Notes under the pieces: model-generated
Told to the model about the DNA's origin: nothing
The model's input: the letters and a program-made list of their open reading frames with translations, nothing else
Database searches by the model: none
Assembly (NCBI GenBank): GCA_046563655.1
Contig: CM102289.1
Location: 4,464,001 to 4,528,000, forward strand
DNA length: 64,000 nucleotides
Direction of reading: 5' to 3'
From: Yuukianura sp. NJ FZ-2021
Taxonomy: Eukaryota
In this document: one piece after another, positions 16,502 through 60,954 of the stretch
How positions within the stretch are numbered: the stretch's first letter is position 1
Layout of the letters: every line of letters begins with the position of its first letter
Program-made: the position numbers and the translations under genes

Positions 16502-16822
16502 CTAGGGTGGGGAACTTTGACTTGTAGCAACACAATGCTGTAATAGGTTATCACAAGCACCCATAATCTTATAAAATGCAAATGTAGAATTGAAAAGTAG
16601 TATTTGAATTGACCCAGAATGTAAAATTGTGATGAATAACATTATAAATTACACTAATTTGAGTGCTTAAAGTGGTGAGTAGTAATTTTTGATAAAAAAA
16701 AATCTGAAAGCTGTTAGTTGAAACTTCACATTTGCAACTAAATTGGTTAAGTAAAACAATCCATCAAGGTTTGAAACAAGAATGTGAGAAATCGTACAAT
16801 CTTTTCGGCTAGCAACTTTCGC
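16502..16822 (-). pseudogene. Inverted, frameshifted remnant of the last two exons of a family-1 gustatory receptor
   Basis: Reverse complement reads ...ILVSNLDGLFYLTNLVANVKFQLTAFRFF... and IMGA/VITY/SIVLLQ with indels, homologous to exons 2-3 of the Grs at 11007 and 17342. Exon 1 is absent. Confidence 0.85.
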
Positions 16823-17341
16823 TAAAGCAAAACCAGAGTTATAAATTTAGATATGTGTTGATGTTCAAACTGGAAAATGCATTTGTTCTACGCTAAGCTG
16901 CGCACGATGGGAATTGTACGGTAAAAAGCTCAACCATTTTCTATTGTAACAATGAAAGACATGGTCCAATGAAAGGAACTTTAATCCACTAGTATTGCAA
17001 AAGCTCTTGTCCAAAATTGTTTGCCAGTTGAAGTTGAACAGTCCAAAGTTGAACAGTATAAGAAAAGAAGACACGTCTTAAGAATTTCTAAAGTTTGTTT
17101 TAAACTTCTTTTTGAGGTAATGTGATTAAATTATTTTGTTGCCAAATTCGAGTGACAAACAAGTACCAAATTGAAATTGGACTTTAGAAATTTTGCACCT
17201 TAGGTAGCTAGAGAACGCTCAACTTGCATCACTTTGCTTCTTTCTTTCGCATAGATATTTTTGGTTATGTCAGAGTAGTGCAGCAATTTAAAAAAAATTG
17301 GAAATTTTGAAAAGAAAAAACTGCATAATCTTAAACATAAA

Positions 17342-18845: not shown

Positions 18846-20352
18846 TTAGTGATAACTTCTTCGGTATTGCTTTTTAATCTTAGTACATTTCCTTGGCATT
18901 AAAATGTATTCCGCGTCCGCAACCGCAACGCATTTCAATCCATCCTCGCAATAAATTTGAAAATGCACTTGTGATTCGCCTCCCCGTCGCAACTTGTTGT
19001 CGGATACAAATGGATGTAGTGGATACACAGGCGACAGTTTGCGATCTTCAACCTCCGACAAATCCAACACACCACAGCGTCCACCCTCTTCCGCTTCACA
19101 TCTATGCGTTTTGGCGTTCCACTTCAGTCCAGAATCTACGCAGGCGCATTTCCCATCTACACAAGCCAAGGCAGCCACTTGGTTGCAGTAAGGCTCCGGG
19201 ATGTGGATGGATCCGTTGGCAGTGTATGGGGGAGTACATGCTCTTCCGTGGCTCAAGTGACACCGCCCCGCTGTGTTTGCTACAAGGCTGGTGTCACAGT
19301 TGCAGCGACCTTTGACACAAGTTGAATGCGGAGCACATTTGGTGGGGGAGTCCTTGGAACAAGCAGCTCCCTCTAATGCATAACATTCAGCGGCGGAATT
19401 TTCAAATTTCATAAATCTTGAATTTAGGCCTGCTCTACATTGGCATATTCCGTTGATACAGCCAAGAGATCTACATAAAAAAAAATTCAAAAATTAGTCA
19501 TAAAAAGTTTTTAAATAATTTTTACTTAAATTCTTACTTGTGGTAGCAGGGTGACTTTTTCGAACATTCGACATGGTAGTCGGGGAGACATTTTCCATCA
19601 GGAGTTGCTTGGTAGCCAATGATACATTCACATTTATGTATTTTTCCACGGTTCATCCATGCCATCCTCCTTTCGTCCTCGTAGTGATAGTAGTAGTGAT
19701 TGTTTCGGTCGTATTTAGCCAAAACGTTTTTTGTGTAACAACACCACGCATTCTGGGTGCACTGGGTCTCAGAGGTACAATTTCCACCGAGTGGAACTGC
19801 GCAGCCAACTTCAGACTCATAGACAGTCTCGTTATCTGCACAGATACAAGTCCCTTTCGGTCCACAGGTCAGAAGCAACCTGCTGTCGCAGGTACGACCT
19901 TGTTCCTTTTGAATCTTGTCCGAACAGGCTTCGTTGTATTGGAGCGCAGGAATGCATTTCTTCTTGAGAATATCGAACTCGTACCTTGGTTTGCACAAAC
20001 AAAATGTGTCGTCGGGGTATATGTTTCTCATAACGTAGCTGTAATCTTTCTTCTGGAGATGTACATCAACAGACTCTGGGAGGTGAACTTTATTAGATAC
20101 ATCTGTACATGTGAGGTTGCTAGGGCAGCCTGTTTCCGAGCACCGTGAGTAATAGCCATTGACACAAGTCTCCGTGTTGTTGTCATAGCGACCGTCCCTA
20201 CATGTACATACTTTTGTACTAGGTTCGCAGTATAAGGGAAAGGTGCAACTTTCGGGTAGTTCGCACTTGTCACCAAACCAAGGAGATCCTACTACAAGCT
20301 CAACTAAACCCAGTCCTAACAACAGAACCAGCCGCATAACTTTCTCGTCCAT
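18846..20352 (-). CDS. Secreted Cys-rich repeat protein (EB-module/EGF-like), 2 exons, ~480 aa
   Basis: Signal peptide MRLVLLLGLGLVELVVG; repeated Cys modules ending in CxC. Exons 20352-19538 and 19470-18846 join in phase (CYHK-SLGCING). Confidence 0.8.
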
Positions 20353-21163
20353 ACTTTTTCGGTAATTTTTTTTAGTAAAGATTTGAATTTTTATGTAGAT
20401 GTAGATTTCAGTTACACAACATAGAAAGTGATAAGCAATAAACCTGATTTGCTTTCAAAGCGTTTGGTTTAAATACGGTCGGTCACGTGCTGTTTGTATT
20501 AGTTAATTTTAAAGATATCATTCGTGATTAGTTTTCTTTCAAAATGCAACCGGAAGTTAAATAGAAGAAATCATTGATCAGCGGCCAATCAATTTGCTGC
20601 TCAATTTAACCAGGAATTAACTGCACTTACCAAAAGATATTAAATACTCTATTTGTCACGCGAACGTATTTAGAATAATATGAATTTGAAATAAACCGCC
20701 TCAATTGTGGCCTTGAAATATCAAGTTGAATGTTCATCACAAGGATACTAACGGAGGGGAAGGATTTTTTGTTGAAAAAAAAATTGATTTGGTGTCACGA
20801 CACATATGTCAATTGAATTTGGTGTAATTGGAGACGACGTTTTTGCGCAATTTTCGGACTGGACTGATGAGTGAGCTAAGCCACTTCTACCCCAATTTAG
20901 GCTCAAGTCACCCCTGGTACTGTGTGTCGAATGTGGACACGATGTCTTTTGTGCAGAGAATGTAATACATCTTTATGTCATTCAGCCGTTTCTGGTGTAA
21001 TGACAAAAAGACAGATTGACATTGTACTTAAACCTAACTTCCTTATTCGTGACGAATTGAAATTTTTCGAAATATTGATTTTTTTCAAACACCATCACAC
21101 CTTCTAACTTCATACAGGATGCATTTGGAAAAAGTGACAATTAGGCTGGGAAATTCACTAAAG

Positions 21164-36921: not shown

Positions 36922-39900
36922 ATGAGAGGTAAGGTGGGGTGACAAAGAATTCGTTTTGCAAATACTACGCAAATTGAATTCGCAAATTCATTTCTAATTT
37001 AGATTGATTTTCGTTATTTTTCTTTTGTTGCTTGTTGATGTTACGATGGATGTCATCCGGTTTTGTTCGTTAACTTATGAACACGAATCCAAACTTTCAG
37101 TTGCATTGCAATGCTGTTAACGCGTCGTATACGCAGGTTATTTTGACAAAAAAGAGCCAAAGAGAGCATGCATTGCCGGTTCCATGCCATTGTGTCAATT
37201 GAATTGTATCAACTGCCATTGCATCAACTGAATTGTGTCAATTTGAATTGTATCAACGCTCAATTGTGTCAACGGCTACTTGTATCAACCAACGTAACCT
37301 AACCTAACTTAAGCTAAATTAAGCATTACACTCGTTGATACAATTAGTCGTTGATACAATTGACCAGTTGATACAATTCAAATTGACACAATTCAGTTGA
37401 TGCAATGGCAGTTGATACAATTCAATTGATACAATGGCGTGCTACCGTTTTGCCAGTATCTCTTCAGTCATTTGGCATGTAATACTTAATAATGCGAAAG
37501 AAAAATGTGGCGCGGATGACAAATGACAGTGACACAACGTACGCATCGTGCGAAATGTCAACTTTATGAGAAAAAGTTACAGATAAACTTTCGGTCGTTA
37601 ACTCTATTGTTTTTGAAATGAATTGCAGGAGAATCTTGGGTGACGCTTGTCTTGGAGGAACAAAATGCTTGGGAAGCGCTTGTGTTGGCTCGTTCCCTCA
37701 AAAGATCATTGACGACAAGACGAATCACCGCTGTGATCTCTCCGCTTCTTCCGTATGCATTCAAGTAAGTACTTTTACGCTAACATTCCCATTCCCGAAT
37801 CGGTGCTTTAGCTGATGCGATTTTCATTACTATAGTTTTTAAATTCTGATTCAGATTATCATGTTTTTCAAGTCATTCAACAGTTGATATTCAAACGCAA
37901 GCTTTAAAAGATTAATGCTCAAAAAAGATTACAAGCTCATGAAACAGTGAATTCATAGTTCAAAAACCAAAATTCCCATGACACTTGTTAACCCATTTAA
38001 ATAAATGGAAAGTGTGATAATTTCAAACCTGTGTAGGCGTAATTGTTACTAGCATTTTTCATTTGATGTAATTGTAAAAAGCATTTTTGGTGCAAATTGT
38101 TGCTAATCTCTCGTAACTATGTCAATCCTAATTCTAGCACGTTTGCACGCGTCATGTCTTACCTACTTGAATTGCCATAAAACCATTCATTAGCAGGCAC
38201 TTGCTATAATCCAAAAACAGGTTTTTGAACGTGGCACAAACAAAAGCAATAATTAAGATAAAGTTGAAAAACAATTCCTTCAGACAAACAAATCCCAGTA
38301 TAATTTAAAACTTTCCGTAATTTAAAAATCATTGCGACATTCCTTCTACTAAAGTGACCAAAGAGCTTAAGGGAACATTTTTAATATTTAAAAGAAGTTT
38401 TACACTTTGTGTCGCAACTTCTAAGGTGATAAAGGGCCATTTGAGGGTTAATTATTGCGTGACTAACGCTGACACGAGGTGTACTTAATAGTTTAAGGCC
38501 GTTCTTCATCCTGTCATTTTTTTAAGGTGGCAATGAAATGATCTTTAGCGAGCATCTTTCACATCACAAAATCGTTTGTTTCAGATTTTGTCTCTTTGGT
38601 GTGAAAATCCTTGAAAGATGAATTGAAAAACGAAAATTTGAAAATCCTCCGCCGGAGTAAGGTTTGAATTTATACAGCAGTCAACCATGAATCGTACACC
38701 AAGTACTCACCAATCCAGTATTTCAGTAGTTTTTACGACTTAGTCTTTTGATGTCATAATGTTGCATGCTTACTACACTTTTTAACCTTAACCCTTTTAA
38801 GTGTACAAGAAGTATGGAAGGCGTCACGCCATTTCAAAAAAAAAAGCCCTTCGGTGGCCTTCGCGGTTTCCCAATAACAAAAACACGTTTTTAACATTTT
38901 TCTTCATTTAACAGTTTTCATTTGGGTTTTTCATTGTTACGAGTAGTATGACGCAAAGGGCCAAATGCGGGGGTATTTACAGCAAAAATGGTTTTTTGAT
39001 TATTCAAAATCCTGCCAGTTTAGACAATGCCTCATCTATAATTAATGAAGAAATGGTATTGATTTGTAGCGTTTAGGGTTATGTAATCGTTATGTGCTGC
39101 ATAACCAATTTTACTAACCTTCTTCCCGGTTGACTCGCCAAAAAAGTATATTCGTAAAAGAATACTTTTGGGATTTCTGTTTTCAATTACTATTAGCGAA
39201 ACCCACTTTTTACCCAAATCCGTGTTCCTTCACATACGTCAAAATTCACTTTTTGTTTTTACATAATTTTTAACTATTATGCGATATTATGTTTTTGGTG
39301 TTGACGGAAAAGTGGAATACCTTGAACAAATTAGGTACTGCACGTTAGATTGTGTTTTGCATCATAAGTTGATGTTATAGAAATATTAATTTTTTGTTTT
39401 GAATTTGTTGTGAAACTCAATTTTTTTGTTTCATTAAGACTATTGCTGAGAGATCAGTTCGATTTGGTACTCGAATTGGAGCAAAATGACTTTGATGACG
39501 CAAATGACCTGGGTTTGTACAAACTCTGGATCTGGAATCTCAAGATTTGGACAAACTGCGTATTTATCCAATCAAACTCACTGGTAAGCAGAGGATGGAA
39601 CCTGTTTTTACTTGAATTCAAATTGAGACAACAAAATGCTGTAAAAATTAAGTTGAATCTCAACGTTTCGCGATGATGCAAATGCACATTTTAGGTCCTC
39701 CGGAACGTGGATGAGCTGTTTGGAAAAAAAGGCAATCATGTCCATCCCCTCATACCTGAATGTTTCAAGTTCCAACCGGATCGAAAAACTTTCCTTGAAA
39801 TGATGCGGGAAGCCCGAGAGGCGGATGTTATGACGGCTGACGATCTACTCAAAAAGCACTTTGGAGGCCAACTTAAGTCCGGTTATGACCAGGGTACCAT

Positions 39901-42900
39901 ATTCGCCAAAGCATCCGAAGTTGACATGAGAGCAAAGTAAGGTCACGAGGGTGAAAAGTCAAAGTCAAGCATATTCCAGTTTGAAATGCGTCTTATTAAA
40001 ATTATAAGTACTTTGGTACCAGGGTGTTGCCGAAAGTGGTTGGATTTACTGAATGTCCTTGGACCCTCCTAAAATCTGACAACGGAAACTTACAGGTAGG
40101 GCTTTCATAATTTACAGCATTTTAAATATGCATTTTCCAACATCTTAATTCCTTGTTTTTTTTTAGAACTTTTCTGGAATATGGTTCCAAGTTTTTACTA
40201 AAGAAATTCTAACAACACTTCATCGTCACAAGGTTGGCAATAATTTGAATAATCTGTTATATGTTTTCCTCAAACTATGCCAAAATGAAGTTATTAAAAA
40301 CAATGTACAGGATTCAAGTGTGGAAAAGACTCTGAATGGATCCATCGCCCGACTTCGTCTGCCACCGCGAAACGGCCCTGCTGCTCCTCAACTGGAAATG
40401 CCACTGTCTCAACTTCAAAATACTGTTGCAGTGGTGGGTCTCAGTTGTCGCTTTGCTTCTGCAAATTCAGTTGACGAATTCTGGGACGTTCTGTCGCAAG
40501 GCAAAGATTGCGTTACAACGTTACCTGAAGGACGTCCGCAAGGATTTCGTCGTGATGTGAAATCCAAGAAAGAGATTATGGCGGGCTTTCTCAAATGCTC
40601 GATTGATGAGTTTGATGCCAAGTTTTTTGGAATTAGTCCAAGAGAGGCTCCGTTTGTAGATCCACAGCAACGGATTCTACTGGAAGTGACATGGGAGGGA
40701 TTGGAAGACGCTGGAATCAATCCACTGTCGCTCAAAGAATCTGATACAGGAGTATTTGTTGGAATTTGGCAACAGGACTATGATCACATGATTCCAGACA
40801 ATGGACTGTCGGCCAATGACTTTCATCATCGCTACCTAGGAAATGCTTTCAGCGCCACGGCCTCAAGAATTTCTTATTTCCTTGGCCTTAATGGGCCAAA
40901 CATGGCGCTTGAAAGGTATTGAAAAAGAATTCTCTTAGGGTGCTGCTGCCAGCGTTTGTTGACTTAGATTTTCTTTGAACAGGTTGGATACTACCTAATG
41001 TTTTTTTTTTGCAAAAAAAAGTTTCTTTATATTCTAGGCATCTTAGTTATGTCAATACAGCCAACTGTTTTAAATTTAGCATACAAATGGGTAGCAATTT
41101 TTCGGATTGCTGCTAAAATTGGCACCAATTTTTTTTCCGTTTTTCCCTCCTCAAGCGAGTTAGTGCCCAACCTGTTAAAGAAAATTCAACTTTCTTTGTC
41201 AAAAACCTTGGTTCCTATTGTTATTCTGAATCTCTCTGCCTTTTTAGTGGTTGTTCATCTTCGCTCGGAGCGCTGCATTTGGGATGTGAGAGTTTGCGCA
41301 GAGGAGAAACGAGTTTGGCAATTGCGAGCGGTGTCAACCTTGTACTCAATGCTACAAATCCATTGTCCGGCGACAACGATACTGTTGTGCTGTCGAAAGA
41401 TCAACGCTGCAAAACGTTTGATGAGAGTAAGCAAAAATATTAACCTGCTAATTTACAGAGATTGGAGCAGTAAATATAACTTCTGTTATACAATTTGAAC
41501 AAAACTTATTGAAAGTCGTTAATTTTCCAAGGTGCTGACGGATTTGTACGAGCTGAGGGTTGTGGCGTTTTGGTGTTGAAGCGATACGCTGATGCTAAAC
41601 GGGACGGAGATTTTATCCATGCCCTAATTCGGGGGTCAGCGCTTAACAATGATGGAGCGGGAACTAGTTTTGGGACACCAAATGCTAGAGCACAGGAACG
41701 TGTCATTCGAGAGGCATTGACCAACGCAGAAGTACAACCATCGAGTGTAAGCTACGTCGAAGCTCATGGCACTGGCACTGCTGTCGGAGGTAATTTTTTT
41801 AGAATTCGAAAATTTTATTACTTATTTTTTCAACATTTCAATTTGGCATTCAGTTTAAAATTTTGTCAAATGTTTCAGACCCAACTGAAGTATATGCTAT
41901 TGGGAAAGTATACGGTGAAGGGAGAATGAAACCGTTGATGATAAGCTCCGTGAAATCAAACATTGGCCACGCAGAATCATGCGCCGGAATAGCTGGTAAC
42001 CACCTAATATTAGAATAATGCTTTTTTATGTTATAAACTTGCTAATTGTTTCTTCTTAATTAATCTAAATACTAGGACTCATCAAAGTGATTTTGTGCAT
42101 GAAGCACAACGCCATTCCTCCACATCTCCACCTCAAAACGCTCAATCCAAGGATCAATTTGGACAGCATTCCAGCCACCATCCCAGTGACTCTGACTGAC
42201 TGGACAGACCAGACAAAAATGGCGGGAGTAAGTTCGTTCAGCATGAGCGGCACAAATGTACACGTCCTTGTTCAAGAGCCAATCAAAGACGACCGCCAGC
42301 TCCAATGCTCAACAGTATCTAAAGAAGACAACCCGCAACTGATTGGAATTTCAGCAAAATCCGAGGAAGCACTTGAAATACTCATTGCCAAATACATTCA
42401 ATTTTTGAAATCAGAACATAATTACTCGCTGGAAGAAATTGCTTTTGGAACAAACGTTTGCCGCGCTGCCCTTCCGCACCGAATTTCAGTCATTGCCAAA
42501 ACTTGCGATGATTTGGTTTCGAAATTGGAAAAAGCCGACTTCACGCGTACGCAGAAAGCTACTAAGCCAAGTGTGGCGTTCCTGTTTACAGGTCAAGGGT
42601 CACAGTACATTGGCATGGGCAAAAATCTCTACAAGCACTTTCCAGTATTCCAAAATGCGATGGATGAATGCAACGTATTGTTTCAAAAGAAGTTGGGCCA
42701 GTCGCTGCTTGAGGTCATTTGGGGCGAAAATCTTTTGGGAAAAACAATCTACTGCCAACCGGCAATCTTCTGTGTCCAATACTCCTTGCTACAACTCTGG
42801 AAGTTTTTTGGTATAGAACCGGACGTTGTACTTGGACACAGCGTAGGTGAATTTAGTGCTGCCGTGGCTGCCGGAGTGATGTCACTGGACGAAGCATTCA

Positions 42901-45900
42901 TGCTCGTTGCTGAGCGGAGTCGACTTATTGAAAAAATTCCACAAGGAGGAATGTTGGTGCTCAAAACGACACAAGGAGAAGTCGAAGCAGCTATTGAAAA
43001 ATTCCACATCAAAGAAAAATCTACAAAACCCTGGCTTGACTTTGCCGCTGTAAATTCATCAGAGGAAGTTGTTGTCTCTGCAGAAATGGACACAATTGTT
43101 CGGTTTCAACAATTTTGCAATACTCTGCAATTAAAGTCCCAAATGATCCCAGCTTCGCATGCGTTTCATTCCAGAGCCATGGAAGAAATCCTGGAGACAT
43201 TTGGAAATTTTGCCTCTCAAATTTCTTACGCTCCACCTTCAAAAGCAACTTATATTTCAGGTACTAAATCAACCACATTTACACATATTGTGGAAAACAT
43301 TAACAACGGCGTGGCTATCTGTGTTGGAAGAGTTATAAAATTCTTTTTTTTTGTGCTGTACATTCCAGGTACACTAGCTGAACAAATGACCGGCGATGAT
43401 TTCACTCCAGCGTATTGGCAACGTCATCTGCGTCACACTGTGAGCTTTGCTTCAGCCATTCGGAAAGTGTGGGAGACCGGTGTCCGATGTTTCGTTGAGA
43501 TTGGAGCACAACCGATTCTTCTTGGTCTAACCATGGCCAATCTTGGTGTCCAGTCCTCCAACGCTACATTTTGTCCGTCATTACGTAAAAGTGAAGAGGA
43601 CAGATTCTGCGTATTAGCCACGTTAAGCAAATTATACGGAGGTAGGAATACTTGGGAGTTAAAGATTTTAAATTCCCAGAAAACGCGATAGATTTAAAGC
43701 AGAGTTTCAATTGACGCTGCTTTGCATCGCACAGTTGTCATTTTTGACAAATTAACTGAAACTAATTTTGCATTTTTAATTTACAGCGGGCGTCGAAATC
43801 AATTGGTCGCAATGGTTCGGTCCAAAAAGGAAAGATATTGTCCGCCAGTTACCGAAATACCCATTTCAACGTCAAAAATACTGGTTTTCAGAAGAGGGTT
43901 CAGAAGAGGACGACGGAATGACCTTGCAAGGTGCCCTTATTCATCCCTTACTTGGTCAAAAGCTTCCAGCACCCGTATCACAATCAATATTTTGCAACAA
44001 ACTGAACTCTGCTATTGCTCCGCTGGAATACACAAGTGACCACAAAGTTGCATCTAAAGTCATCTTACCAGCAGCAGCATATTTGGAAACAATTATGGCC
44101 GCCGGTCGAGAAGTTTTGCAAGGAAATGGACTTAAGGTTCCCATGACAGTAGAAAACCTAAGCGTCGAGGCAGCTCTGGAACTCGACTCTCCAGTACGGA
44201 TCCAAGTGATTGTAAATCCAGCAAATTCGGCAGATTTGGTCCATTACTCCATTGGAATTTTTAAGCAAGTTCAAGCAGAAAAGTGGAAACGACATGCCAA
44301 CGGCACGCTGACTCCAATGACCAGCCATGTTGTTCATGACGACAGGATGAACCTCGCAGAAATTCAACAGAAAATGAAACAAACTGGACCAGAGGCGCTG
44401 GAGAAAGCATACGCTGCCATTGCCGGAATTGGAATTCAATTCGGTCCCAGATTTCAAAGTATCAAGAAAGGTTGGAGCTTGACTCGTGATGACTCGGCAG
44501 AACTTCTTACCGAAATTCAAATGCCGCCTGGGCGGGAAGATTATGTTTGTCATCCTGTTGTCCTGGACGCAATGATTCAATCTTACGCTTTTAGAGGCGC
44601 CATGACTTCCCCGGACAACGCCAGTTTACACCTCCAGCTTCCAATAGGAATCAAAAAATTTACGTGGTACTCGGAAGAAGTAACAGACGACGTATACGCA
44701 TACACTACCTGGAAAATGTCCGGCGATGACAGCGGAACAGTTCATTTGTACAATAGCAATGGGACGTTACTAGCTCGTATGGAAGGTTTAGAATTGCTAA
44801 AAACAACGGTAGACTCTTTCTTGAGAGCCCTGCGAGCTGAACAAGTCGATTTGCCCGACTTTTGGCACGAAATTTGGAGACCGACAGAAAGTTTTACCGA
44901 GAAACAAATTTCTTTGACCGTTTTGACCTTTCAGCCAAACGAAGACGGTCAGAAAGTAACAGAAACGTTGAAACTCATTCGAAACTTTGAAAGTGGAGGG
45001 TGGCTGGGAGTGAAAAAGTTGAATTTGGCTTCCACACAAGGATTACTACGAAGTATTGCACAGTGTAAATGGGACATGCCGGTTGGGAAACACTTGGAGT
45101 TGGAGAGTTTGCGTAAACGTCTTCCGGCTAACATGCAGAAAACTAAATTTTTGGAATTTTGTCTCGAAATATTGAAAACAGAGGGTTACGTCAAGCATGG
45201 TGAATTTGGATGGGAAGTGATCACGGCCTTACCGACAATATCAGAATCAACGGCTAAAATTGATGCATTGATTGATGAAGCTGTGATTACCTGTGGAACA
45301 GACGCTGTTGTTGGTTATGCCAAACGAATGATTAGTCACATTGGAGATGTTCTAGAAGGAAAAATGACTTCATTGGCCCTACTTTTTCCAGAAGATCACC
45401 ACACATACGGAGCACAGCGTTATTACTCTGAAGGTAAATTTACAAAAATACTTTCAGTTTTCTAATACAGAACTGATTTTAAAATATTTAATACAAAATT
45501 TTATTTTTATTAGCCGAAATGTACAAATGTTCCGGTGACCTCGTTGTTTCCTGCCTGCTCGACACTGTTGCCAAAATCGAAACAAGTAATAAAAAGCGGC
45601 TCCAAATTCTGGAAGTCGGAGCTGGAACAGGAGCCACCACGGGAGTAATGTTGCAGAAGTTGTCTGAACTTGGAGTTTCATTTGACTACACATTCACAGA
45701 TATTTCTCCACTGTTTGTCTCCGACGCTAAGAAACGTTTTGGAGAAAAGCCAAATCTCCATTTTGAAACTCTCAACTTAGAAGAAGATCCACTTTCTCAA
45801 AATTTTCCACCACAAAGTTTTGACATCATCATTGGTCTACAAGTTCTTCACGCTACAAAAGATCTCAGAAAGACGCTCACACATTTGAACGTTCTTCTGC

Positions 45901-48900
45901 GTCACGACGGCCAGCTCATCTTCAGTGAACAATTCGCCGACATTCCACTGATTTCGCTTTCATTTGGCCTGCTAGATGGGTGGTGGAGATTTGAAGACGA
46001 TCGTCTGCTTGGGCCTATGGTGAGCGTCGATGGCTGGAAGGAACGACTAGGTCAGACTGGATTTGGAGATTGTGGTGCTATGACTATGATGGACGGTACA
46101 AGTGGAACCGTTTGGGCAAGGAAAGTGACCGACATGCCACTAAAGAACATTTCTGAAGGAAAGGCAGCAGAACCCGTTTGGATTGTTGTGGAAGACGGCT
46201 CAGCGCTAAGTTCTTCAATTATTGGAAAGCTAGAAGACCACGGCAGAGAAGCAAGACGCATTAGCTTGATGGAAAGTCTTAGCACTGGATTGGATCCAGA
46301 AGTATTTAAAAACCTCATTTCTGAATTTTTGGAAAAACAGACAAAGTTGGAAGGAATTCTGTTCTTTTGGACTATACAAAATGAAGAAACTATCGCCCGG
46401 GTACAAGAACGCATCTGTGGGAATCTTCTCAATTTGTGCAAAGCAGTAGTGGCCAATAGCGGTAACATGAAAGCAAAGCCACGCCTTGTAACTGTTACGC
46501 GTGGGCTGCATTACATTGGTGACGCAGGACTCGGTAATCCCAATGGAGCCACGTTATGGGGACTTCTGAAATCATTCTGCAACGAAAATCCGGAATTCCC
46601 TACGGTGCTTATTGACGCTAATCCAATCCCAGAACCAGAGATGGAACTCACTGAAATATTTTCTGAACTGTGGACAATGCGAAAACAGCGGGAAATGTTT
46701 TTGTCTTTAAGAGAAGGAAAGAAATACGTCCAGAGACTTGCAGCTTTTGAAAAATCAAAAAATACACTCACGCTACCACAATCGTCTCGCTTTACATTTG
46801 TTAGCCCACCAACCCGAACTTTTTCCGATATTCAAATTGGGCCAGCAGGGAAATTGGAAGTCACTGGAGATCAAGTTGAAATTGCCATCCAAGCCACTGC
46901 CCTTAACTTCCGTGATTTATTTGTTGTATTACGTCCAGAAGGATTTGAACACATGAAAGGCGTTGGACTCGACGTAGCAGGAATTGTCGTATCGAAAGGT
47001 CCTGATGCCAAAGAACTCGACATTGGGGACGAAGTATTTGGGTTTACACTGAAAGGAGGTCTGTGCAGCCATATTGTCGTCAGTGAGCACACAATGATGA
47101 GAAAACCCAAGGCCATGACCTTTACCTGTGCAGCTACAATTCCATGTGCCTTCCTAACTGCGTACTACTCTTTAGTCGAAATTGCAAAAATCTCTAGCAA
47201 AGATCGCGTTCTCATTCATGTCGCATCGGGTGGTGTAGGATTAGCTGCAATTCAAATTGCTCAAAACGTTGGAGCCGAAATTTTTGCAACGGCTGGTAGT
47301 AGAAGAAAACGTGAATACCTTCGATCTCTTGGTATAAAACACATTTACCACTCGCGAAATATCGACTTTGGGGATCAAATTTTAGCAGATACAGAGGGAG
47401 CTGGCGTTACGATTGTTCTAAACTCTCTAACTGGTCCTGGATTCAAAGAAAAATCACTCGGCGCATGCGCTCAAGGAGCTTACTTTTTGGAAATTGGAAA
47501 GTTAAACATTTGGAAAAACGAGGAAGTCCAAGCATTACGTCCTGATGTGAAGTACTTTATCATTGACCTCGCCGGAATGGGGGAGACAGACACACGCCAA
47601 ATGTCAGCCATGATGAAAAGTATGGAACTGCTTTTTGAAAATGGCACCTACAAATCTCTTCCGCATACAAAATTTCCTTTGGAACTCACACGTCAAGCGT
47701 TCTACTTTTTCCAAGAAGCCAAACACATTGGAAAAGTTGTCATCAAAATGCCGAAAGTGGAAATTGCGGAAAGTGATGGACGATTAACTCTGAAAAATCA
47801 ACTGTTTGACCCCCAATGTACTTATCTGATTACCGGAGGACTCGGTGGCCTTGGAATGGAAGTTGCTAAGTGGATGACATCATCTGGCGCTGTAACTGTT
47901 ATTCTTGTGGGCCGAAATCCACCAACTGCCCAAGCTCAGAAACTGATCGATAGCTGGAATGCTGGAGGGAGCTCCATTGTAACAATGCAGGCGGACGTTA
48001 GTAAATACAGTGTATGTGAGGAGATGCTGAAGGAAATTGGGAGGAAGTATCCACCATTACGGGGAGTCGTACATGCAGCAGGAGTAATTTCGGATGCCAT
48101 TATTCCAAATCAGACTTGGGAAAAGTATCAAAGCACACTTGAGCCAAAAGCTTTCGGTGCTTGGCATTTACACAACCTAACGAAAAACTATGATCTCGAC
48201 TACTTCATCATGTTCTCATCCGTTGCTGCCATTGTTGGACTGCCAGGTCAAAGTAATCATTGTGCCGGTAACAGATATTTGGACTCCTTGACACATTATC
48301 GAATTGCTATGGGACTTCCTTCGACTAGTATCAACTGGGGAGCATGGTCGGACGTCGGTGCAGCAGCACACATTAAGTTAGGACAAGAAGGAGCCCTTGG
48401 ACTTCGCGCTTTCACTCCAAAGCAAGGAATTGCATCTCTTGACTACATTTTACGACATGCCTATAATCAGATGAGTATTCTGGACATTAGTGACTGGAAT
48501 GTTGTCAAACAATTTATTCTTCAAGGCAACTACTTATCAGAAATTAAGATGGCTGGAACGGACAGTTCCTCCGGAAGAAATTCAGAAGAATATTCTCAGA
48601 TTATGGAGCAAATTAAGACTTGTAAACCGGAGGAGCGACAAGCAAAAATTGAGGCTTTCTTGGACACGATTTTGAAACAGACGCTGAAACTACCGCCAAA
48701 TGAAACAATTGACCCTGACCAGAACTTTACTGAACTTGGAGTCGACTCCCTCATGGCAATGGAAATGCGAAATCGCCTTCAGGGAGTTCTCGGAGACAAA
48801 ACGTTGAGTGTGAGCGCTCTTCAGGAAAATAGGACTCTCCGCAGCCTTGCTCTTTACATGACAAATTTGATGAGTTCAGAAATCATTGAAGCCCCTGAAC

Positions 48901-50135
48901 AAAATATTCTGAATATGTTGCTCGAAGATTCGAAACTACCCGCTGAAATTGTGGCACCAACTGCAGGGCCCGTCAAACCTTCAAATATACGCAAAGTTCT
49001 TTTAACCGGAGCGACTGGTCATCTAGGAGCATACTTTTTGCCTAAATTGGTTGAGAGAGGCCTTGAAGTTACTTGTCTCGTCCGCGGAAGTAGTAAAACA
49101 GAAGCAGAAGAGCGCTTGCGTAAAGTTGTTTCCAAATATGAGCTCCTGGTGGAATGGGAAATGGTTTCTATTGAAGTTGGAGACGTGTCTAAAGATCTAC
49201 TGGGATTGTCCAGTGAACGCTACACTGAACTGGCAACAGAGATAGACGCTGTGATTCACTGCGCAATCAAATCCAACCATGTGGAGGGTTACCATCAAGG
49301 GAATGATGCTGATGGAAGTGGAAGTATGAGAGTACAAAACGTTTTCGGTCTAAGGAATGTCATTGCGTTTGCGGCTACAGAAAAAACAAAAGCAATCCTT
49401 CATGCATCCTCTATCCTAGCCATTAATCGGATTAGCAAAACTGGCACATTGGACGAAGAATTCCCTGCAGAAGATAACCATGGAGACGGAATTTCAAATG
49501 GATACAGTTTGACTAAACTAATTTCGGAGAAACTGTTAGCAGAGGCAGAGAAACGCGGAATTCCTGTCACAGTGTTGCGCTACCCCGGTATCTTCGGAGA
49601 CAGTCGTACTGGATTAATGCCCATTGAAAATAACCATGCCTGGGGGTTGCTTCTGGCTTGCATGCGCGTGCGCATGTTTCCAGAGATGGGACATCATGGC
49701 CTTCCGATGATGCCGGTAGATGTAGCTGTCCGGATTTCAAATGAACTGTTCTTTAACGATGGAGTTGAGCGCGGGATTTACAATTTGACGAGTGAAAATG
49801 AAGCGACGGAGGGAGTACTTCAGGAGGTAACGGCAGAATTTGGAACGGCAGGAAAGTTCGTTCCATTTGGAACTTGGAGAGACGCAGTTTTTGAGAATTT
49901 GGATTCGAGTGAACTGTCTTCCATGTTGTTTTTGTATGAAGACACAAAGGCGGAAGGAAGTGACGTTTCCACACCCAGATACGTTGGATTCCATCCTCTG
50001 GCGAAATTATCTAACGTTAACTTTTCCATGCTCAGTGAAAAGCTGAAACGAAATTTTCCTGATGTCGAAAGCGTATTAATCCCCGCCAAAGAAGTACTTC
50101 GTGTGCATCTCAAACATCATTTCAACAAAATTTAA
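36922..50135 (+). CDS. Glycogenin-like (GT8) domain fused to a single-module reducing type I polyketide synthase: GT8*-KS-AT-DH-cMT-ER-KR-ACP-R, ~3184 aa
   Basis: Exons 36922-36928, 37629-37764, 39439-39583, 39695-39936, 40023-40095, 40167-40232, 40311-40915, 41248-41426, 41532-41789, 41879-41995, 42076-43260, 43369-43641, 43787-45433 and 45514-50135 total 9555 nt. All introns are GT-AG and phase-consistent. Motifs: [51 protein letters not shown]; c[54 protein letters not shown]. Confidence 0.88.
37177..37447. mobile_element. Palindromic MITE in intron 1 of the GT8-PKS gene
   Basis: Imperfect TIRs CGGTTCCATGCCATTG and CAATGGCGTGCTACCG; mirrored internal TGTRTCAA repeats; central AACCTAACCTAA. 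Confidence 0.8.
40968..41184. mobile_element. Small inverted-repeat element in the intron splitting the KS active-site motif
   Basis: TTCTTTGAACAGGTTGGATACTA ... TAGTGCCCAACCTGTTAAAGAA are inverted matches. Confidence 0.5.
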
Positions 50136-51917: not shown

Positions 51918-54159
51918 CTAACAAATTAAACAATTGTTTTGTTTTTTAATCCTAGCTCTCTCCGTTTCATGCTGCATACCGCACTTGTCTCGTTCAAGTT
52001 CAGCCATGGCAATCTCCTTTTCCTTTTGCATTCGAATCCGAAGATTTTCATTCTCGGCTTGAACTTGTTTGGCTCGGATGTTTTGCTCATGCGCCCTGGC
52101 TGCAGCCGCCTGCTCAGCTTCATGTCTAATTTTAGCCATGTTTGCTTCTTGCTCGCTTTTGCGAATAAATTGTTTAGTCTCCGAGTCTATTTTGGCTTCC
52201 TTGAGTCTAGTTTCTTCCGCAAATTTTGATTTCTCCAATTCCATTTTCTCAACCTCAACTTTAGTTTGCATTTCAATCTCTGCTTTCATTTTTTCAGCAT
52301 CAGCGTTGATTTTAGCAACAGTTTCCACCTTTTCCTTTTGTATGCCTTCCCGTCCTGTCTTTCCTTCCTCCTCCAATTGTTTAATTTTGAGCTGGCATTC
52401 CTTTTCAACTGCATGCATTTGCTGAACGGCAGCCATCTTGATTTCAGCAACTTTGGCTTCAAGCTCGCGCATTTTCAATATTGCGGTGTGTCGGATGTTC
52501 TGCATTTCAAGTGCTTTGTCTGATAATTTGGCAACAATTTCTTGGTTTGAATAGACTTGTTCGCTACAAGCCTTGAGTTGGGCATTCCCGAGCGAGTTGT
52601 CCGAATCAACAACCTGCTTTTGTTGTAAATGATTAAGGAAAATACACAGCCCGATGCAGACGCCAACGGTAACGAGCAGAACAAGAAGTTGAGAAGTGTA
52701 GGCCTAAAAATACCAATAAATGCGGAATTTCTATATGAGTCTGTATATTGATTGAATTCTCAATTATCAAGTTTAGCTTTTGGTTTTGGTTTTATGAAGT
52801 GTAGGCCTGAACAGAACTATTCCGAAATTACTCTTAAAATGGTTTGATCAAAATTTCGCAAAATAGTGGATATTTGTAAACATGTAGTAAACATTACACT
52901 ACACTTACCAAAAATGCCAGCAGGAATACAAGTGAAGGAATTCCAACGAAAATCAATTCTTTTGGGCAAGCTTCAAGGACAACTCGAAGTGTTTCGCCTA
53001 ATCCAACCTTGTGCTTGTCTTGGTGTTGTTTGGCTTGGACTTGCAATTCTACCACTGACGCCAAACTAAAGTAAGCATAAAAGGGGACAGTAGTAATGAA
53101 AGTTGATCTTAATTCATTTCCGGTTTGATGAAAACACATTAGAATACCTGGTCGGTTTGGAGATGGAACCTAACATATCAGTCATCGCCCTCAAATTATC
53201 GGAAGTATTTTCTTTGAGGTAAATAGCCGCCGTATCTTTCAAATCGCAACTGTCCAGCGTCAACTCCTTGTTCCCATCGTTCTGTAAAATTTTAAATTTA
53301 TCAGAAGCGTTTTCGCTTTTTAATAGCGAGTCGAGTTATTTTAACGTAGCCTATCTGACAACTGGACACACTCCATGTGGATTTGGAGTTAATGTTTCGT
53401 TTTTGTAAGAAAATTTGAAATGTTTTATGTGCTGCTCATAAACCGAAAATCCGGCAAATTCCCGTTAACGTAACTACCCCTAAATAGCCAGTAGTGCTGA
53501 AAAATATTTCACATGTCTGAAAATTATAGTTTGGGTTTTTGGTAAGTGGCATTTCTGCAGAAGTCACCGAGGACATTCTGGAGCGATATTTATTCACTTT
53601 ATTGTAAAAATGAAAAACTTTGTTGACGTTTTCTGAGAAGAAAAGTGTTAAACCTTTTCCTCAACATCACGCCAAATGTCATCCAAAATTAATAACAACA
53701 GAAACCTAGTACGTCTCGACTTTGGTGACAAAGACGAGATTCCAAGGTCACGCGCTCAAGTCTAGTGTTGATAGGTCTCATTCCTTTGGACGGTGAGTCA
53801 TGTACATAATTTTTGATTGGTTAGGCTAAGTATCATGGAGTTAGACCATTAATTGCGGCAATACTCGTTCATAATCTGCCGACTCTGAGTTGACCAGTCT
53901 TAGGATTAGATTAGAATGTTCATCAGATTAGGAGTTACTGTCGTTATTGTAATTTACATTAATCTACATATCATAAAAGCATTATTCTAATTAATTGTGA
54001 CATTTTAAGTAGAACCCTTACCCGAGTAGCCAACGCTTCGGAAGAAGTTTTAGGCGCATCTTTGCAAAGTGTCTTGTCATCTTCATCTATTTCTTCAATT
54101 GTTGTACTTGTGTCTTGCGTAGTTTGACCCCCGACATAGCTTGTGCTGTTGCCCATCAT
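51918..54159 (-). CDS. Orphan hydrophobic-hairpin + coiled-coil protein with C-terminal CaaX (CLIC), ~404 aa
   Basis: Exons 54159-54022, 53281-53148, 53065-52909 and 52703-51918 join in frame (1215 nt). Starts MMGNSTS; hydrophobic stretch LIFVGIPSLVFLLAFL|AYTSQLLVLLVTVGVCIGLCIFL; E/K/A/Q-rich heptads; ends KKQNNCLIC*. Confidence 0.75.
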
Positions 54160-55268: not shown

Positions 55269-56500
55269 ATGGCTGATTCTTCGACAAACTGTTCTCCAGG
55301 AATGGTAATACAATATTTATGATAGTATTCTTATTTCGTTTTACAATGTTTTCTATTTGTTTCTAAAAACTAAAAATAAACGTTATAACCGTGTCAATTT
55401 TTAGGTGACCTCGGCAAAACTGTTCGACGAAAGGGTCGAACGGAATGTTGAATCCATTCTGTCTAATGTAACTTCCATTCACATTGTATAGTTTTAGATG
55501 CAAGTTTTATATATTTGGGTATGGACTGAATAACATCGCTAATGAAAGTGTTTAACTTTAAATTATTTTGGTGTTTCAGACAGACAATGAAATTCGTAAA
55601 ATTAAAATGCAAACAAGGAATGACGTTCAAAAAATCGACAACGCCGTTTACTCTCAAATGCAGGACACTCTGAATACTATGATAGACAATGAAGAAAAAT
55701 GTCAAACAGCGATGAACTCATTGGAGCAACATGGAATTGCACAGCGCGAAAAAATTCAAATGGACCATGTCAAGCAAATGAATACGATCGCAGAAGACCG
55801 ACAACAATTCGAGTCCCAACTGCAGGATTTTGAAAGAGACGAAATCCAAGTCCTTGAAAACGCCAAAAATGACTTATTTCATCACACAAAAGCGGAATTG
55901 CAAAACATCAAGCAGCAAGATGAACATTTTAATCTATCGCGTAATGAAGAAGAGAAAGAAATGGAGGAATTTTATTTGCGGCAAACTCAAAAACAAGAAG
56001 AAGAACTTAACGAAGCACAGAACAGACTGAATCAATCTCATTTAAAAAATATGCAGAGTTTTGAGGACGAAATGCGGAAATTCCGGGAAGAACAGAAAAG
56101 GCAATTGGCTGAATTTGAAGCAGAGGAAAAAAGAAAACAGGAAAAAATAAAAAAGAAGTCTTGGTACCAGAACTTGAACTTCCCATCCGTAAATTTTTTT
56201 GGCAGTTCTTCGTCTTCGTCAAATCCAGACTCGAACTTCCCTCCACCTAGAGTTACTTCCAATCCACAGTCACGTCAATGGGAGGCGACTACAAATTCAA
56301 ATAGACAAAGTTCGAGTTACGCGCCATATCGATACAATTGCAATCCGCAGTCAGGTCAACGGAAGCCTAATCCAGGAAATTCAAATCAAGCGATGAGGAA
56401 ACTGCCTGGGAATAGCTATTGCAGGGACAAGCACACTCCCATTGCCGGTGCAACGGCAACTTCTAACCCCATCGATTTAGATCAACTTGAATTGGACTAA
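55269..56500 (+). CDS. Orphan coiled-coil protein with S/N/P/Q-rich disordered tail, ~339 aa
   Basis: Exons 55269-55304, 55405-55467 and 55580-56500 join in phase 0. Long E/Q/K-rich helical region. Confidence 0.65.
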
Positions 56501-57146: not shown

Positions 57147-58218
57147 TTAGTTTGGTTTCCACGAAGATCTAATTCTGGCAGCTTCTCGTTGGCTTTCTTC
57201 CAATTGACGTTTCAACTGCTCTTTCGTGCTCCTTAATTCTTTGCTGGCTTGTTGAACGCTCTGTCTGTGTTGTATTTTATGTGCATATATATCATTCTGC
57301 GCCTTTGCTTGCATTACTGATGTCATGATCTTTGCCTCTTGACGACAATTCTCCGTCAGTTCGTCCTCTTGTGAGGTCACTGTATCAATATCGTGTTGTG
57401 CCTGCCTTTGTTTAATGCGGACTCTGGACTTCATCTGGTTCTCAGTAACGGAATGACTAATGCTCACTAAATCCAAGGCCGCTTTGGATTTTTCTTCAGT
57501 ACGAGCTAGCATTTCATCTCCCTGTGAATAAAATCACTTTGCAGCTTCAAGATTGAAATAAATCTTGCACTTTCACAAATGAGTTTAAAAAATGGAACAT
57601 GACTAACTAAGCAACGCTATAACATCAAGGTTAGATTCTTTGAAAAAGTTGTTGCTATGCCAGTTACTTTGCACTGCCGGGTATATTGAAGTATTTCAGA
57701 AAAAAATTTCAAGGAATGTCAAAAAATCCAAAAGCGACAATAATAACATATTTTTTAAACACTGGCAGCAGCTTGTTTACAAGACCCAGTGCGTTATTTT
57801 ACGCCATGTCACAATATTTTTTTAAATAAGCCGGTTTAGTTTAACCTGTTTGAAACGATTACACATTTTCACTTCAAATTCCACAACTTACAATACTTTC
57901 TGCATAGTCACTGAACATTTGCGTTTTGATTAACGCAGTTGACAGCTGAGAAGCGTCAACCTGGCGCTGAATTCTAGTCTCCGTTGTGTTCCTGACGTAG
58001 ACTGCAATTTGATATATCGCAAATAAAAGAGCGGGAGGCAGAATCAGGAGGTAGACTGAATTTGTATAAATCTGAAATATTAAAATCTATCAAAAATATA
58101 CCAACTAAAGTAAAGGCATGTTGTATACACGTTTTTGTTAGTTTAACCTTACAAAGACACAGAGTCCCAGAGTAAAAGGAACGATAAAACAAGCCCATAG
58201 CTTCAAATTTCCACTCAT
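57147..58218 (-). CDS. Orphan hydrophobic-hairpin + coiled-coil protein, ~183 aa
   Basis: Exons 58218-58153, 58071-57961 and 57521-57147 give MSGNLKLWACFIVPFTLGLCVF|IYTNSVYLLILPPALLFAIYQIAVYV...|GDEMLARTEEK... Confidence 0.7.
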
Positions 58219-59826: not shown

Positions 59827-60954
59827 TCACTCGACTTCTTCAATTACTGGACCTGATGGAGGGCAAGATAATTCTAAAAGTCTGGATCTTGGCATACTAG
59901 AAATTCCTGAACTCCCCAATCCTGAAAATCCGGATCCCAAACGACTGGGCGGTGTTCCTGAAAACCCCGATATTGTGGTCCTAGAACTCCCAGAGTGTCC
60001 AGATTCTGACGTAGCGGCGTTACCCAGCAGGCCTAATCCCACGCCAAGGGCCCCGAGTGCCGGCGTCTTTGTCAGAGCTGCAATTCCAAGCGTCGAAGCG
60101 ATTGCGTTGAGAGGATTGTTCGCTGCTTGCCTCTCTGCTGACTCTGTTTTAATCCGAGTCCTCTCCAATTTTTGGACTTCTTGAAACTTTTTTAAATCGA
60201 TTTCTTTTGCAAACATATTTTCAGCCCCCTGAATCTTTTTGTCGGTAATCCTCAAGGCAGTGTCGCTTCTCTCGTGGGCAATTGCCAAGTTAGTGGAACA
60301 CCCTAGCTGAAATCTAGAAGTTTCTTTGTCTTGCATCATTTCGTTGGTTTTGTAGTTCAATTCTCCAAGGAGTTTTTGCGTTTTGGAATTTCGTTTACTT
60401 TCTCTTTCTCGTTGTTCTAAAACCGATCGCTCAAGGCCAAAGCGCCCAAATTCCAGTTTTTCGGTTGATTCCAATGTTTTTGAGAACATGTTCGAATGTA
60501 CTTCCAATGCTGTTGTTTTATAAGTGTGGTCCAATCTTCCTAGAGTTTCCGACGTTCTAGCCTGTAGTTCGGCTCGTAAATTCTCCCCTGTTTGCAAAGT
60601 GTCCATAAGTTGGCTTGCAGTGGCCAGTCGCTCCCGCTCCACACCGACATCCATTGTCTTAAGTTCCTGGGCCGTTGTGCAATTTAAAAGGGCAACTCTC
60701 TCTGCACTTTGGGCTTGAAACTTTTGGCCTTCCAACTGTAGCTTAGTTATTTCTATCGCAGATTTGGCTTGGTGAGCAGCGATGGCTTCCTTCGTTTTAG
60801 TGGTGATGACCACAGTGTCACGATTTGCCCACAAAATTAAGACTGTGAGTAAAACAACCAGAATTGCCACACCGCATACTAAGAGTGTAGCGTCCTAAAA
60901 TTGAAAAAAAAAATGAAACAGTCTTTCAAAAAGCATTTAAAGTAACCTCACCAT
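59827..60954 (-). CDS. Orphan N-terminally membrane-anchored coiled-coil protein ending in GPVIEEVE, ~356 aa
   Basis: ATG-only exon (60954-60952) plus exon 60894-59827. TM segment LLVCGVAILVVLLTVLILW; long coiled coil; second hydrophobic Gly-rich patch; G/S-rich tail. Confidence 0.75.

Follow-up and report, generated by a model that had tools for sequence, protein, structure and literature searches.

How does the protein encoded by an animal type I polyketide synthase (PKS) gene begin? To our knowledge, animal type I PKS and fatty acid synthase (FAS) enzymes are taken to begin with a ketosynthase (KS) domain. The question is raised by a gene at positions 36922-50135 (+) of a 64,000-nucleotide stretch of DNA from Yuukianura sp. 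NJ FZ-2021 (GenBank assembly GCA_046563655.1, contig CM102289.1, positions 4,464,001 to 4,528,000 of the forward strand). In this text, the window means this whole stretch, and positions are counted from its first letter. A first-pass annotation, made from the sequence alone, had proposed that six small exons upstream of the KS encode a glycosyltransferase family 8 (GT8) domain derived from glycogenin, and that this domain is joined in frame to a reducing PKS. This core reading was upheld: nine PKS models from springtails of the genus Orchesella carry the same kind of extension, a profile built from these extensions matches glycogenins at E = 2e-32, and the predicted structure of one of them resembles glycogenin structures with template modeling (TM) scores of 0.73-0.75. 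Taken as a whole, the locus is probably best explained as a glycogenin-PKS fusion in which a catalytically dead glycogenin domain would have been kept as a non-catalytic structural module.

The window DNA is eukaryotic, with about 38% G+C and short GT-AG introns. The spliced gene model comprises 14 exons (9555 nt, 3184 codons), with a single stop codon at the end and GT-AG borders in 13 of 13 introns. The splice junctions were picked among frame-compatible GT/AG pairs by best agreement with homologues. This independent rebuild gives the same number of exons and the same total length as the first-pass annotation. The two junctions that had been singled out there (36928/37629 and 40232/40311, the latter across a 78-nt phase-0 intron) are correct in the rebuilt model, and the peptides quoted there are all present in the sequence where they had been placed. 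In the predicted protein, residues 1-223 correspond to a fold of the glycogenin type (GT8, GT-A), residues 224-260 to a linker and residues 261-3184 to the PKS.

All exons are on the + strand. Exon 1 (36922-36928) consists of 7 coding nt (ATGAGAG) with a phase-1 donor (AG/gtaagg) and encodes Met, Arg and the first third of a Gly codon; its junction with exon 2 reads ATGAGAG/gtaagg ... cag/GAG. Exon 2 (37629-37764, 136 nt; nt 8-143 of the coding sequence, CDS) codes for the first strand (beta-1) and the first helix (alpha-1) of the glycogenin fold. Exon 3 (39439-39583, 145 nt) keeps the equivalent of glycogenin Lys86 (YKLWIW) and has a degenerate DxD site (FIQSNSL). Exon 4 (39695-39936, 242 nt, donor AAA/gtaagg) contains VLRNVDELF with the conserved N-x-D-E-L-F strand, and the N133-S-G and D160-G-G-D-Q-G motifs are lost from it. 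Exon 5 (40023-40095, 73 nt) is the counterpart of glycogenin KVVHF.G..KPW, with His212 changed to Gly. Exon 6 (40167-40232, 66 nt) corresponds to the last helix of the glycogenin fold and matches helix 216-242 in the structural model of the Orchesella homologue P0005. Intron 6 (40233-40310, 78 nt, phase 0) has no in-frame stop codon. The linker of about 37 residues (DSSVEK...) occupies the start of exon 7 (40311-40418) and holds an internal ATG at 40399. The remaining coding sequence lies in exons 7-10 (40311-40915, 41248-41426, 41532-41789 and 41879-41995) and exons 11-14 (42076-43260, 43369-43641, 43787-45433 and 45514-50135, with the stop codon at 50133-50135). Intron 11 (43261-43368, 108 nt) is in frame, and was deduced from a 32-36-residue gap in homologues together with its GT-AG sites. 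Introns 6 and 11 are both stop-free multiples of three, so that their retention would add 26 or 36 residues and leave the protein unbroken; the lists of open reading frames (ORFs) read straight through both.

Between 35000 and 37628, there are 49 phase-compatible candidates for exon 1, and the one chosen is alone in having an AG/GTAAGG consensus donor. The MRG start is common to three of the nine Orchesella models (P0005, P0013 and P0025); P0005 begins with MRGVEAWVTTV. In a passage of PMC5735306, the human GYG1 mutation c.143+3G>C is described as an intron 2 splicing mutation, by which exon 2 is skipped with the consequence p.Asp3Glufs*4, and this splice-variant notation is repeated in a table of PMC7046021. 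Because the skip shifts the frame at Asp3 and the exon ends at c.143, human GYG1 exon 2 spans c.8-143 (136 nt) and follows 7 coding nt of exon 1. In the window gene, intron 1 (phase 1) follows nt 7 of the CDS and intron 2 (phase 2) follows nt 143, and the first 48 residues align with glycogenin without an indel. Therefore, two intron positions with their phases are shared with human GYG1, which points to an animal glycogenin gene as the source of the N-terminal module and also supports the 7-nt exon 1. The 7-nt first coding exon that the first-pass annotation ascribed to animal glycogenin genes agrees with this human layout. Thus, we prefer the 7-nt exon 1 on the basis of its consensus donor, the MRG start in Orchesella and the human GYG1 exon layout. 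The positions of the later window introns do not match those in two canonical eukaryotic contigs (L008 and L009), and this comparison is uninformative. Intron 1 also contains a non-coding foldback (37177-37447), in which two 81-nt arms, 95% complementary and 109 nt apart, enclose a second 38-nt pair. It looks like the insertion of a small element of the miniature inverted-repeat transposable element (MITE) type.

Relatives were found by a search with the large last exon. The best long relatives are PKS models of Orchesella dallaii and O. cincta and a few JGI or Logan proteins, with 35-38% identity. When the N-termini of the 16 nearest PKSs were compared, a GT8-like extension of about 250 residues was present before the KS in nine (P0001, P0004, P0005, P0006, P0009, P0013, P0014, P0017 and P0025). 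The seven others are without the full extension and start at the KS, except for P0010, which starts inside the last helix of the extension. In the nine full-length models, which come from two species, the linker from the domain to the KS has 30-45 residues. The window gene, the sole PKS of the window, is collinear with P0005 and P0004 over its full length. The Orchesella PKS models (for example CAL8085358.1, which is P0124, 3219 aa) share with the window the end-to-end architecture, the KS clan and a loop deletion that is described below. Over the N-terminal domain they are only 28% identical to the window protein, over the KS 52% and over the C-terminal half 35-38%. Their dead active-site residues differ from those of the window. 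Their sources name them "Erythronolide synthase", "Fatty acid synthase" or "Pks15/1", and we found no annotation or discussion of their N-terminal domain. The architecture is already present, unannotated, in public springtail protein models.

Several other observations concern the distribution of these sequences. P0002, P0003, P0007, P0008 (JGI) and P0011 (Logan) begin right at the KS, and the KS tree places them within the Orchesella PKS clan; the N-terminus of P0002 resembles a translated pyrimidine tract. These five are probably springtail DNA in soil metagenomes, of which the upstream exons were uncalled. In O. dallaii, there are dozens of glycogenin-like sequences without a DxD motif (P0121-P0155 and others), of which UniRef calls two fragments "Glycogenin-1". 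Several of them lie on one contig of 3,044,714 bp together with full-length PKSs (P0006, P0010, P0013, P0014 and P0124). This pattern speaks for an extensive expansion in tandem, in which many of the models are partial or split. A true glycogenin with intact DxD co-exists in springtails, for example XP_021960471.1 of Folsomia candida. A metagenome scan with the domain alignment yielded nine loci; all nine are ordinary DxD glycogenins, and none has a KS downstream. Among annotated proteins of 141-2000 aa containing exon 4, none of 47 candidates scored; a protein of about 3200 aa lies beyond that range.

Is the N-terminus really glycogenin-like? Profile A1 is a hidden Markov model (HMM) built from the N-terminal extensions of the nine Orchesella models. 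The 225 spliced residues of the window scored 103.2 bits against A1, and the best of 1000 shuffles scored 6.0. The six-frame ORFs of the window (64 kb) amount to 2744 pieces; when all of them were searched with A1, only three had E<0.001, and the next best had 0.29. These three pieces (37622-37765, 1.2e-12; 39368-39673, 1.6e-4; 39695-39937, 6.6e-4) lie in collinear order on the + strand, immediately before the KS. Against the Protein Data Bank (PDB), A1 found 20 distinct sequences at E<=10. Nineteen are glycogenin-1 or glycogenin-2 (2.2e-32 to 5.1e-31) and one is another GT8 enzyme (6mw5, 5.3e-12). The best match, 4ueg, spans A1 positions 5-256, and most others span 4-181. By BLASTP, window residues 3-222 aligned at 8e-22 with P0162, a true glycogenin of the insect Apolygus lucorum, and this alignment extends over exons 5 and 6; exon 6 was aligned with LSNFLDLWWDIFLKDV of P0162. 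The window N-terminus also matched P0158, a 221-residue JGI protein from a 1051-bp contig, at 3e-37 with 36% identity, and exon 2 had 47.5% identity to P0005 by tblastn. The structure was predicted for the domain of the Orchesella homologue P0005 rather than for the spliced protein of the window: the AlphaFold (AF2) model, from a 38-row alignment (A2), has a pLDDT of 87 and a pTM of 0.85. A Foldseek search with this model gave glycogenins at all of ranks 1-32 (TM 0.68-0.75, E about 1e-17), and other GT8 enzymes came after them.

As judged from these comparisons, the N-terminus is a GT-A fold homologous to glycogenin across the whole catalytic domain. The 103-bit score, the 8e-22 match to P0162 and the 2e-32 matches of A1 to PDB glycogenins thus bear out the identity that the first-pass annotation had given to the first 220 or so residues. 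The Pfam check proposed with it would have given a false negative. PF01501 (Glyco_transf_8) matched none of nine Orchesella N-terminal domains, each searched singly, while it does match the canonical proteins P0157 (3.3e-19) and P0268 (1.3e-5). Because single Orchesella domains escape PF01501, the GT8-like domain is absent from those precomputed Pfam lists of the relatives that were consulted. With single exon pieces of the window, the outcome, which is given below, is negative, and the comparative profiles are positive. That blank result is what a chance likeness, low complexity or a decayed pseudogene fragment unrelated to the PKS would have in its favor. Against such a coincidence stand the distance between 103 bits and the best shuffle, the 8e-22 match to a true glycogenin over the whole domain, the six open exons with canonical splice sites and the homologous domains in the same place in springtail PKSs. 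We consider it refuted by these findings and scarcely credible.

The second question is whether this domain is still an enzyme. The roles of glycogenin residues used here (metal ligands and UDP-glucose contacts) are those of the glycogenin structural literature. A library search with A1 found 2915 proteins at E<=1e-3 and 55 at E<=1e-30. The best 150 matches, the nine Orchesella domains and the window made an alignment of 160 sequences, from which seven with fewer than 140 profile positions were dropped. The site numbering was checked against the alignment of A1 with PDB glycogenins. The alignment was split by the DxD columns (Asp102-x-Asp104, the Mn2+ site) into 104 canonical sequences, defined by both Asp, and 49 DxD-less sequences, namely the window and 48 others. 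Because the canonical set (104 of 153) is defined by both Asp, only the half that concerns the window and its relatives is informative at D102 and D104. In the canonical set, 102-104 of the 104 sequences retain each of T11, Y15, R77, K86, N133, G135, D160, D163, Q164, Y195, H212 and K218. In contrast, most of the 48 DxD-less sequences have a replacement or deletion at T11, Y15, R77, D102, D104, N133, G135, D160, D163, Q164, Y195, H212 and K218. The same 13 sites are replaced or deleted in the window (Tyr195 apparently so), except for the D163 equivalent, which is still Asp. Only K86 (45/48), N110 (46/48), D112 (48/48) and D/E13 persist in the DxD-less set, and these are also present in the window.

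The replacements differ from lineage to lineage. The DxD motif, D-A-D in glycogenin, is Q-S-N in the window, N-S-N in P0158 and mostly S-P-x in Orchesella; across the 48 other DxD-less sequences, the D102 column reads S22/E8/A5/D4... and the D104 column T14/N12/S8.... Among the listed disease variants of GYG1 is p.Asp102His. The window has Gly at His212, the third metal ligand, and no Lys218, while canonical sequences have His in 103/104 and Lys in 102/104. At Asn12, Tyr15, Arg77, Lys86, Asn133, Asp160, Asp163 and Gln164, which are retained in 92-104 of 104 canonical sequences, the window has E, N, a deletion, K, a deletion, T, D and a deletion, respectively, although region 160-165 is gappy. 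The column of Tyr195, the self-glucosylated residue of glycogenin, lies in a poorly aligned stretch and has Val in the window, Thr in P0158 and Tyr in 103/104 canonical sequences. The loop before Lys86, which carries Arg77, has lost 7-10 residues in all DxD-less sequences including the window; it is present in six of six canonical sequences shown, and Arg77 itself in 104/104. Because the replacements differ between lineages, no new conserved pocket was seen. P0268, which belongs to the DxD-less set, clusters with the canonical glycogenins and matches PF01501, and it is probably a canonical relative. With the three Mn2+ ligands and most UDP-glucose contacts gone, the glycogenin-like domain is, as judged from its residues, highly likely to be a pseudoenzyme. 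The first-pass annotation had listed sugar-nucleotide binding among possible roles of the domain. Because the DxD is Q-S-N and His212 is Gly in the window, this is the least likely of the roles suggested there.

The third question is whether the dead domain and the PKS belong to one protein. It might be that exons 1-6 form a stand-alone pseudo-glycogenin and that the PKS has its own start (MPLSQLQ, 40399), so that the fused models would be read-through predictions. In favor of two transcription units, the ATG at 40399 is in frame, seven codons before the KS homology, and could yield a PKS without the domain. In addition, P0010 is a PKS model without the domain, and O. dallaii has many models of 160-275 aa that contain nothing but the GT8-like domain; these short models may be split models, fragments or true stand-alone genes. 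Both observations count against a single fused protein, as does the fact that the exon 1-2 and exon 6-7 joins are predictions. However, the glycogenin-like frame has no stop codon of its own. Exon 6 lies in a stop-free ORF (40167-40922) that contains the start of the KS, so that the last helix and the KS share one frame. Because intron 6 has 78 nt and no in-frame stop, the fusion is in frame whether this intron is spliced or retained. It should be mentioned that chance would leave 26 codons open in roughly one case in six, as estimated from base composition, and the open intron 6 alone therefore says nothing. There is no AATAAA on the + strand from 38006 to 45587, which leaves none after exon 6 up to that point. 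P0010 starts inside the last GT8 helix, which means that helix and KS are contiguous in Orchesella too, and nine full-length models from two species have the same order and spacing.

Moreover, DxD-less domains were found only together with this PKS clan. Among six long DxD-less O. dallaii models, Pfam finds PKS domains in four (P0124, P0126, P0131 and P0136) and no family at all in P0129 and P0133. None of the six shows a non-PKS Pfam family, and P0129 carries a KS motif, which lies at residues 262-299 in P0124, P0129 and P0136. Thus, although the transcript is deduced from the genome, the window gene very likely encodes one fused protein, and we regard two separate units as an unlikely arrangement.

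Why, then, would a dead domain be kept? Among eight Orchesella paralogues, identity is 37% in the GT8-like domain, 16% in the linker, 33-37% in non-catalytic interdomain regions and 48-69% in catalytic domains. By this measure of sequence constraint, the domain would thus behave as a constrained structural part, and neither as a decaying leader nor as an enzyme. One alternative is that the domain is a relic of expression, kept only for its promoter, start codon and 5' exons, and that it folds harmlessly. This fits the loss of catalytic residues by different routes in the window (Q-S-N) and Orchesella (mostly S-P-x), the variable C-terminal third of the domain and the animal intron positions, which show the host origin of the 5' end. 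However, a useless leader of 225 residues would be expected to shrink or break, while all six exons have kept open frames and consensus splice sites. Across the fold, the window and Orchesella still share 28% identity and the paralogues 37%, well above the linker (16%) and equal to the interdomain regions, and the AF2 model of the P0005 domain is confident (pLDDT 87). For these reasons, a relic has only a modest chance of being the explanation.

Another alternative is that the domain still works, either as a metal-independent glycosyltransferase acting on the polyketide or as a nucleotide- or CoA-binding module for loading or regulation. The N-terminal position is where PKS loading domains sit, and the window domain occupies this "loading" position. 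The equivalent of Lys86 and the N-x-D-E-L-F strand are kept (K 45/48, N 46/48 and D 48/48, as well as the window), and the GT-A fold is intact in the P0005 model. Against this, D102, D104, H212, N133, D160, Q164 and K218 are replaced in the window, and variously across lineages; the R77 loop is deleted in all, and the Pfam GT8 family is blind to nine of nine Orchesella domains. A working module is, in our estimate, improbable, even more so than two separate units.

We return to the reading of a structural module. The dead domain could act as a dimeric cap, in which it would hold two KS N-termini together. True glycogenin is a homodimer. We favor this cap over other structural roles because the domain directly precedes the dimeric KS, at a distance of 30-45 residues, and because of the glycogenin homodimer. 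A structural or dimerizing role in particular is a possibility that falls somewhat short of an even chance.

How might such a gene have arisen? The KS tree had 45 rows, namely the window and, out of 120 KS matches, the best 22 plus every fourth of the 88 ranked after them, and it is unrooted. The window, 10 Orchesella and five JGI or Logan sequences form a clan (SH-aLRT 100), apart from 29 bacterial or metagenome PKSs, and the window is sister to the rest of this clan (support 99). Among the best 120 long homologues, Orchesella is the only named animal source, and the named non-animals are bacteria. The GT8 tree had 56 rows, namely 30 of the 49 DxD-less sequences and 26 of the 104 canonical ones (every fourth). 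The canonical glycogenins, including those of Capsaspora, a copepod, a nematomorph and insects, form a clan (100) on a long branch. All DxD-less domains except P0268 are on the opposite side, and the window and P0158 are sisters (97). A single old fusion is the most economical reading of these data, although it is not proven. In this scheme, a bacterial-type PKS would have received the promoter, the start codon and the 5' exons with their introns from a duplicated animal glycogenin gene. The fusion would be older than the split of this arthropod from Orchesella, and many paralogues would then have arisen in Orchesella.

Springtail PKSs are reported as horizontally acquired and bacterial-like in PMC5490193 and PMC10764717. 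The former describes 30 type I PKS clusters in F. candida and calls most cluster genes horizontal transfers. The window PKS resembles the type I PKSs of F. candida in being bacterial-like in an arthropod genome, and its nearest relatives outside the clan are bacteria. In a bolder version, which we put forward more tentatively than the structural role of the domain, a horizontally acquired bacterial PKS captured the glycogenin 5' exons and the dead domain became an obligatory dimerizing or priming module. The result would be a new arthropod class, "glycogenin-capped PKSs", with dozens of springtail paralogues, which would probably make reduced methyl-branched lipids or defensive polyketides.

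In addition to the points raised for two transcription units, several others weigh against our explanation. PF01501 was found in none of five window exon pieces, each searched singly at E<=10, and only the KS was found. The Orchesella proteins are themselves gene models. The GT8 tree is fragile because of its long branches, and the placement of the window and P0158 with the canonical or the Orchesella type has a support of only 6. On the GT8 domain alone, the domain of the window may have had an independent origin. The horizontal origin rests on the bacterial nearest non-arthropod matches and on the statements in the two papers. Finally, Lys86 is a diphosphate contact in glycogenin, and its retention in 45/48 sequences and the window hints that some ligand may still be bound, for which a purely structural role offers no explanation.

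It is useful to compare the window gene with known systems. Glycogenin-1 and glycogenin-2 (GYG1 and GYG2; EC 2.4.1.186; PDB 1LL2, 3T7O, 4UEG and 6EQL) have the same fold, with homology over the catalytic domain of about 260 residues. The first two intron positions (of human GYG1), Lys86 and the N-x-D-E-L-F strand are shared with the window. In contrast, DxD, His212, Asn133-Ser-Gly, Asp160, Gln164, Lys218, apparently Tyr195, and the Arg77 loop are lost in the window, and the C-terminal glycogen-synthase-binding tail is absent, with a PKS of 2900 residues instead. Modular PKSs have N-terminal docking or dimerization elements, such as the coiled coils of DEBS, and loading domains of the GNAT, SAT or FAAL type. 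The window domain stands in the same place, before a dimeric KS and on a short linker, but its fold and origin (host GT-A) are wholly different. Docking and dimerization elements would be the favored functional analogy. Dictyostelium Steely is a FAS-like PKS fused to a type III PKS. It, too, joins a megasynthase to an unrelated enzyme domain in a way specific to eukaryotes; however, its added domain is catalytic and C-terminal, while that of the window is at the N-terminus and has lost catalysis.

Our literature search, which did not extend to most subscription journals or to supplementary files, brought up no account of a fusion between glycogenin and a PKS. The word "glycogenin" occurs 0 times in the two papers on springtail PKSs (PMC5490193 and PMC10764717), and an animal-wide PKS survey analyzed KS domains only. 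The fusion, which is shared with springtail genes, has apparently never been described before, and it would surprise a PKS specialist. If our reading is correct, a whole PKS clan begins with a conserved dead glycogenin domain that is invisible to Pfam-based annotation; domain surveys, including the KS-only survey of animal PKSs, would miss it. The locus would be a clean and datable case of how a foreign bacterial-type gene may be domesticated by fusion to host exons. Since the host exons keep the intron positions of the vertebrate orthologue, the acquisition of promoters and introns by transferred genes becomes directly testable. The domain would also be a new pseudoenzyme, in which one can ask what a GT-A fold does without its metal and sugar-nucleotide sites. 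In addition, the analysis flags an arthropod PKS family that is uncharacterized as to its products.

The PKS part shows all expected domains. The KS (40419-42140, exons 7-11) matches PF00109 (2.4e-44) and PF02801 (4.8e-16) and has the active-site Cys (ESGCSSS) and both His motifs. The KS-AT linker and acyltransferase (AT) follow at 42144-43607 (PF16197, PF22621 and PF00698, the last at 1.1e-49), with GHSVGE and HAFH; HAFH is presumably a malonyl-type motif. The dehydratase (DH; 43942-44805, exon 13) matches PF21089 (2.1e-16) and PF14765 (5.1e-19). Exon 14 encodes the C-methyltransferase (cMT; 45561-46064, PF08242, 3.9e-18, LEVGAGTG), and downstream of this are the enoyl reductase (ER; 46869-47744, PF08240, PF00107 and PF13602, HVASGGVG), the ketoreductase (KR; 47820-48353, PF08659, 2.5e-66), the acyl carrier protein (ACP; 48660-48857, PF00550, 1.1e-13, with the phosphopantetheine site LGVDSL) and a terminal thioester reductase (NAD_binding_4; 48996-49733, PF07993, 8.7e-44, GATGHLG and YxxxK). 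All these features are on the + strand. The catalytic motifs are intact in the spliced protein (KS Cys/His/His, AT GHSxG, ACP DSL, and the glycine motifs of KR and reductase). By its domain content, the PKS is a complete highly reducing type I enzyme, KS-AT-DH-cMT-ER-KR-ACP-thioester reductase. Its expected product is a chain built from malonyl units, reduced and possibly C-methylated, which would be set free reductively as an aldehyde or alcohol. In the KR, many enzymes have N-Y-A-A-A-N at a position where the window, P0001, P0005 and P0003 have G-Q-S-N-H-x-A-G-N, with a Tyr a few residues later; this applies to three of 10 homologues, and the other seven were unmatched by the search pattern.

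The genes that flank the PKS in the window are ordinary eukaryotic or arthropod genes: a TCP-1 chaperonin, an isocitrate dehydrogenase, a CBS-domain protein and an ionotropic receptor. Because these are host genes, contamination is not an issue. Downstream of the PKS, ORFs at 51918-52703 (-), 55562-56500 (+), 57147-57533 (-) and 59827-60894 (-) are rich in Glu, Lys and Gln, coiled-coil-like and without a Pfam match. On the other side, two ORFs at 10986-12059 (+) and 17279-18409 (+), 357 and 376 aa long, clearly resemble each other by eye; both are hydrophobic and have no Pfam match. Between them is an 812-aa ORF (13306-15744, -), which Atlas places with arthropod ionotropic receptors; a sequence search with it gave no match at E<=1e-10. 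The ORFs of 10986-18409 might together represent a small cluster of membrane or chemoreceptor-like genes specific to the lineage. Side by side at 18846-20454 (-) lie two Cys-rich ORFs (215 and 306 aa); they have no Pfam match, and their cysteine spacing looks like that of secreted EGF-like or toxin-like repeats.

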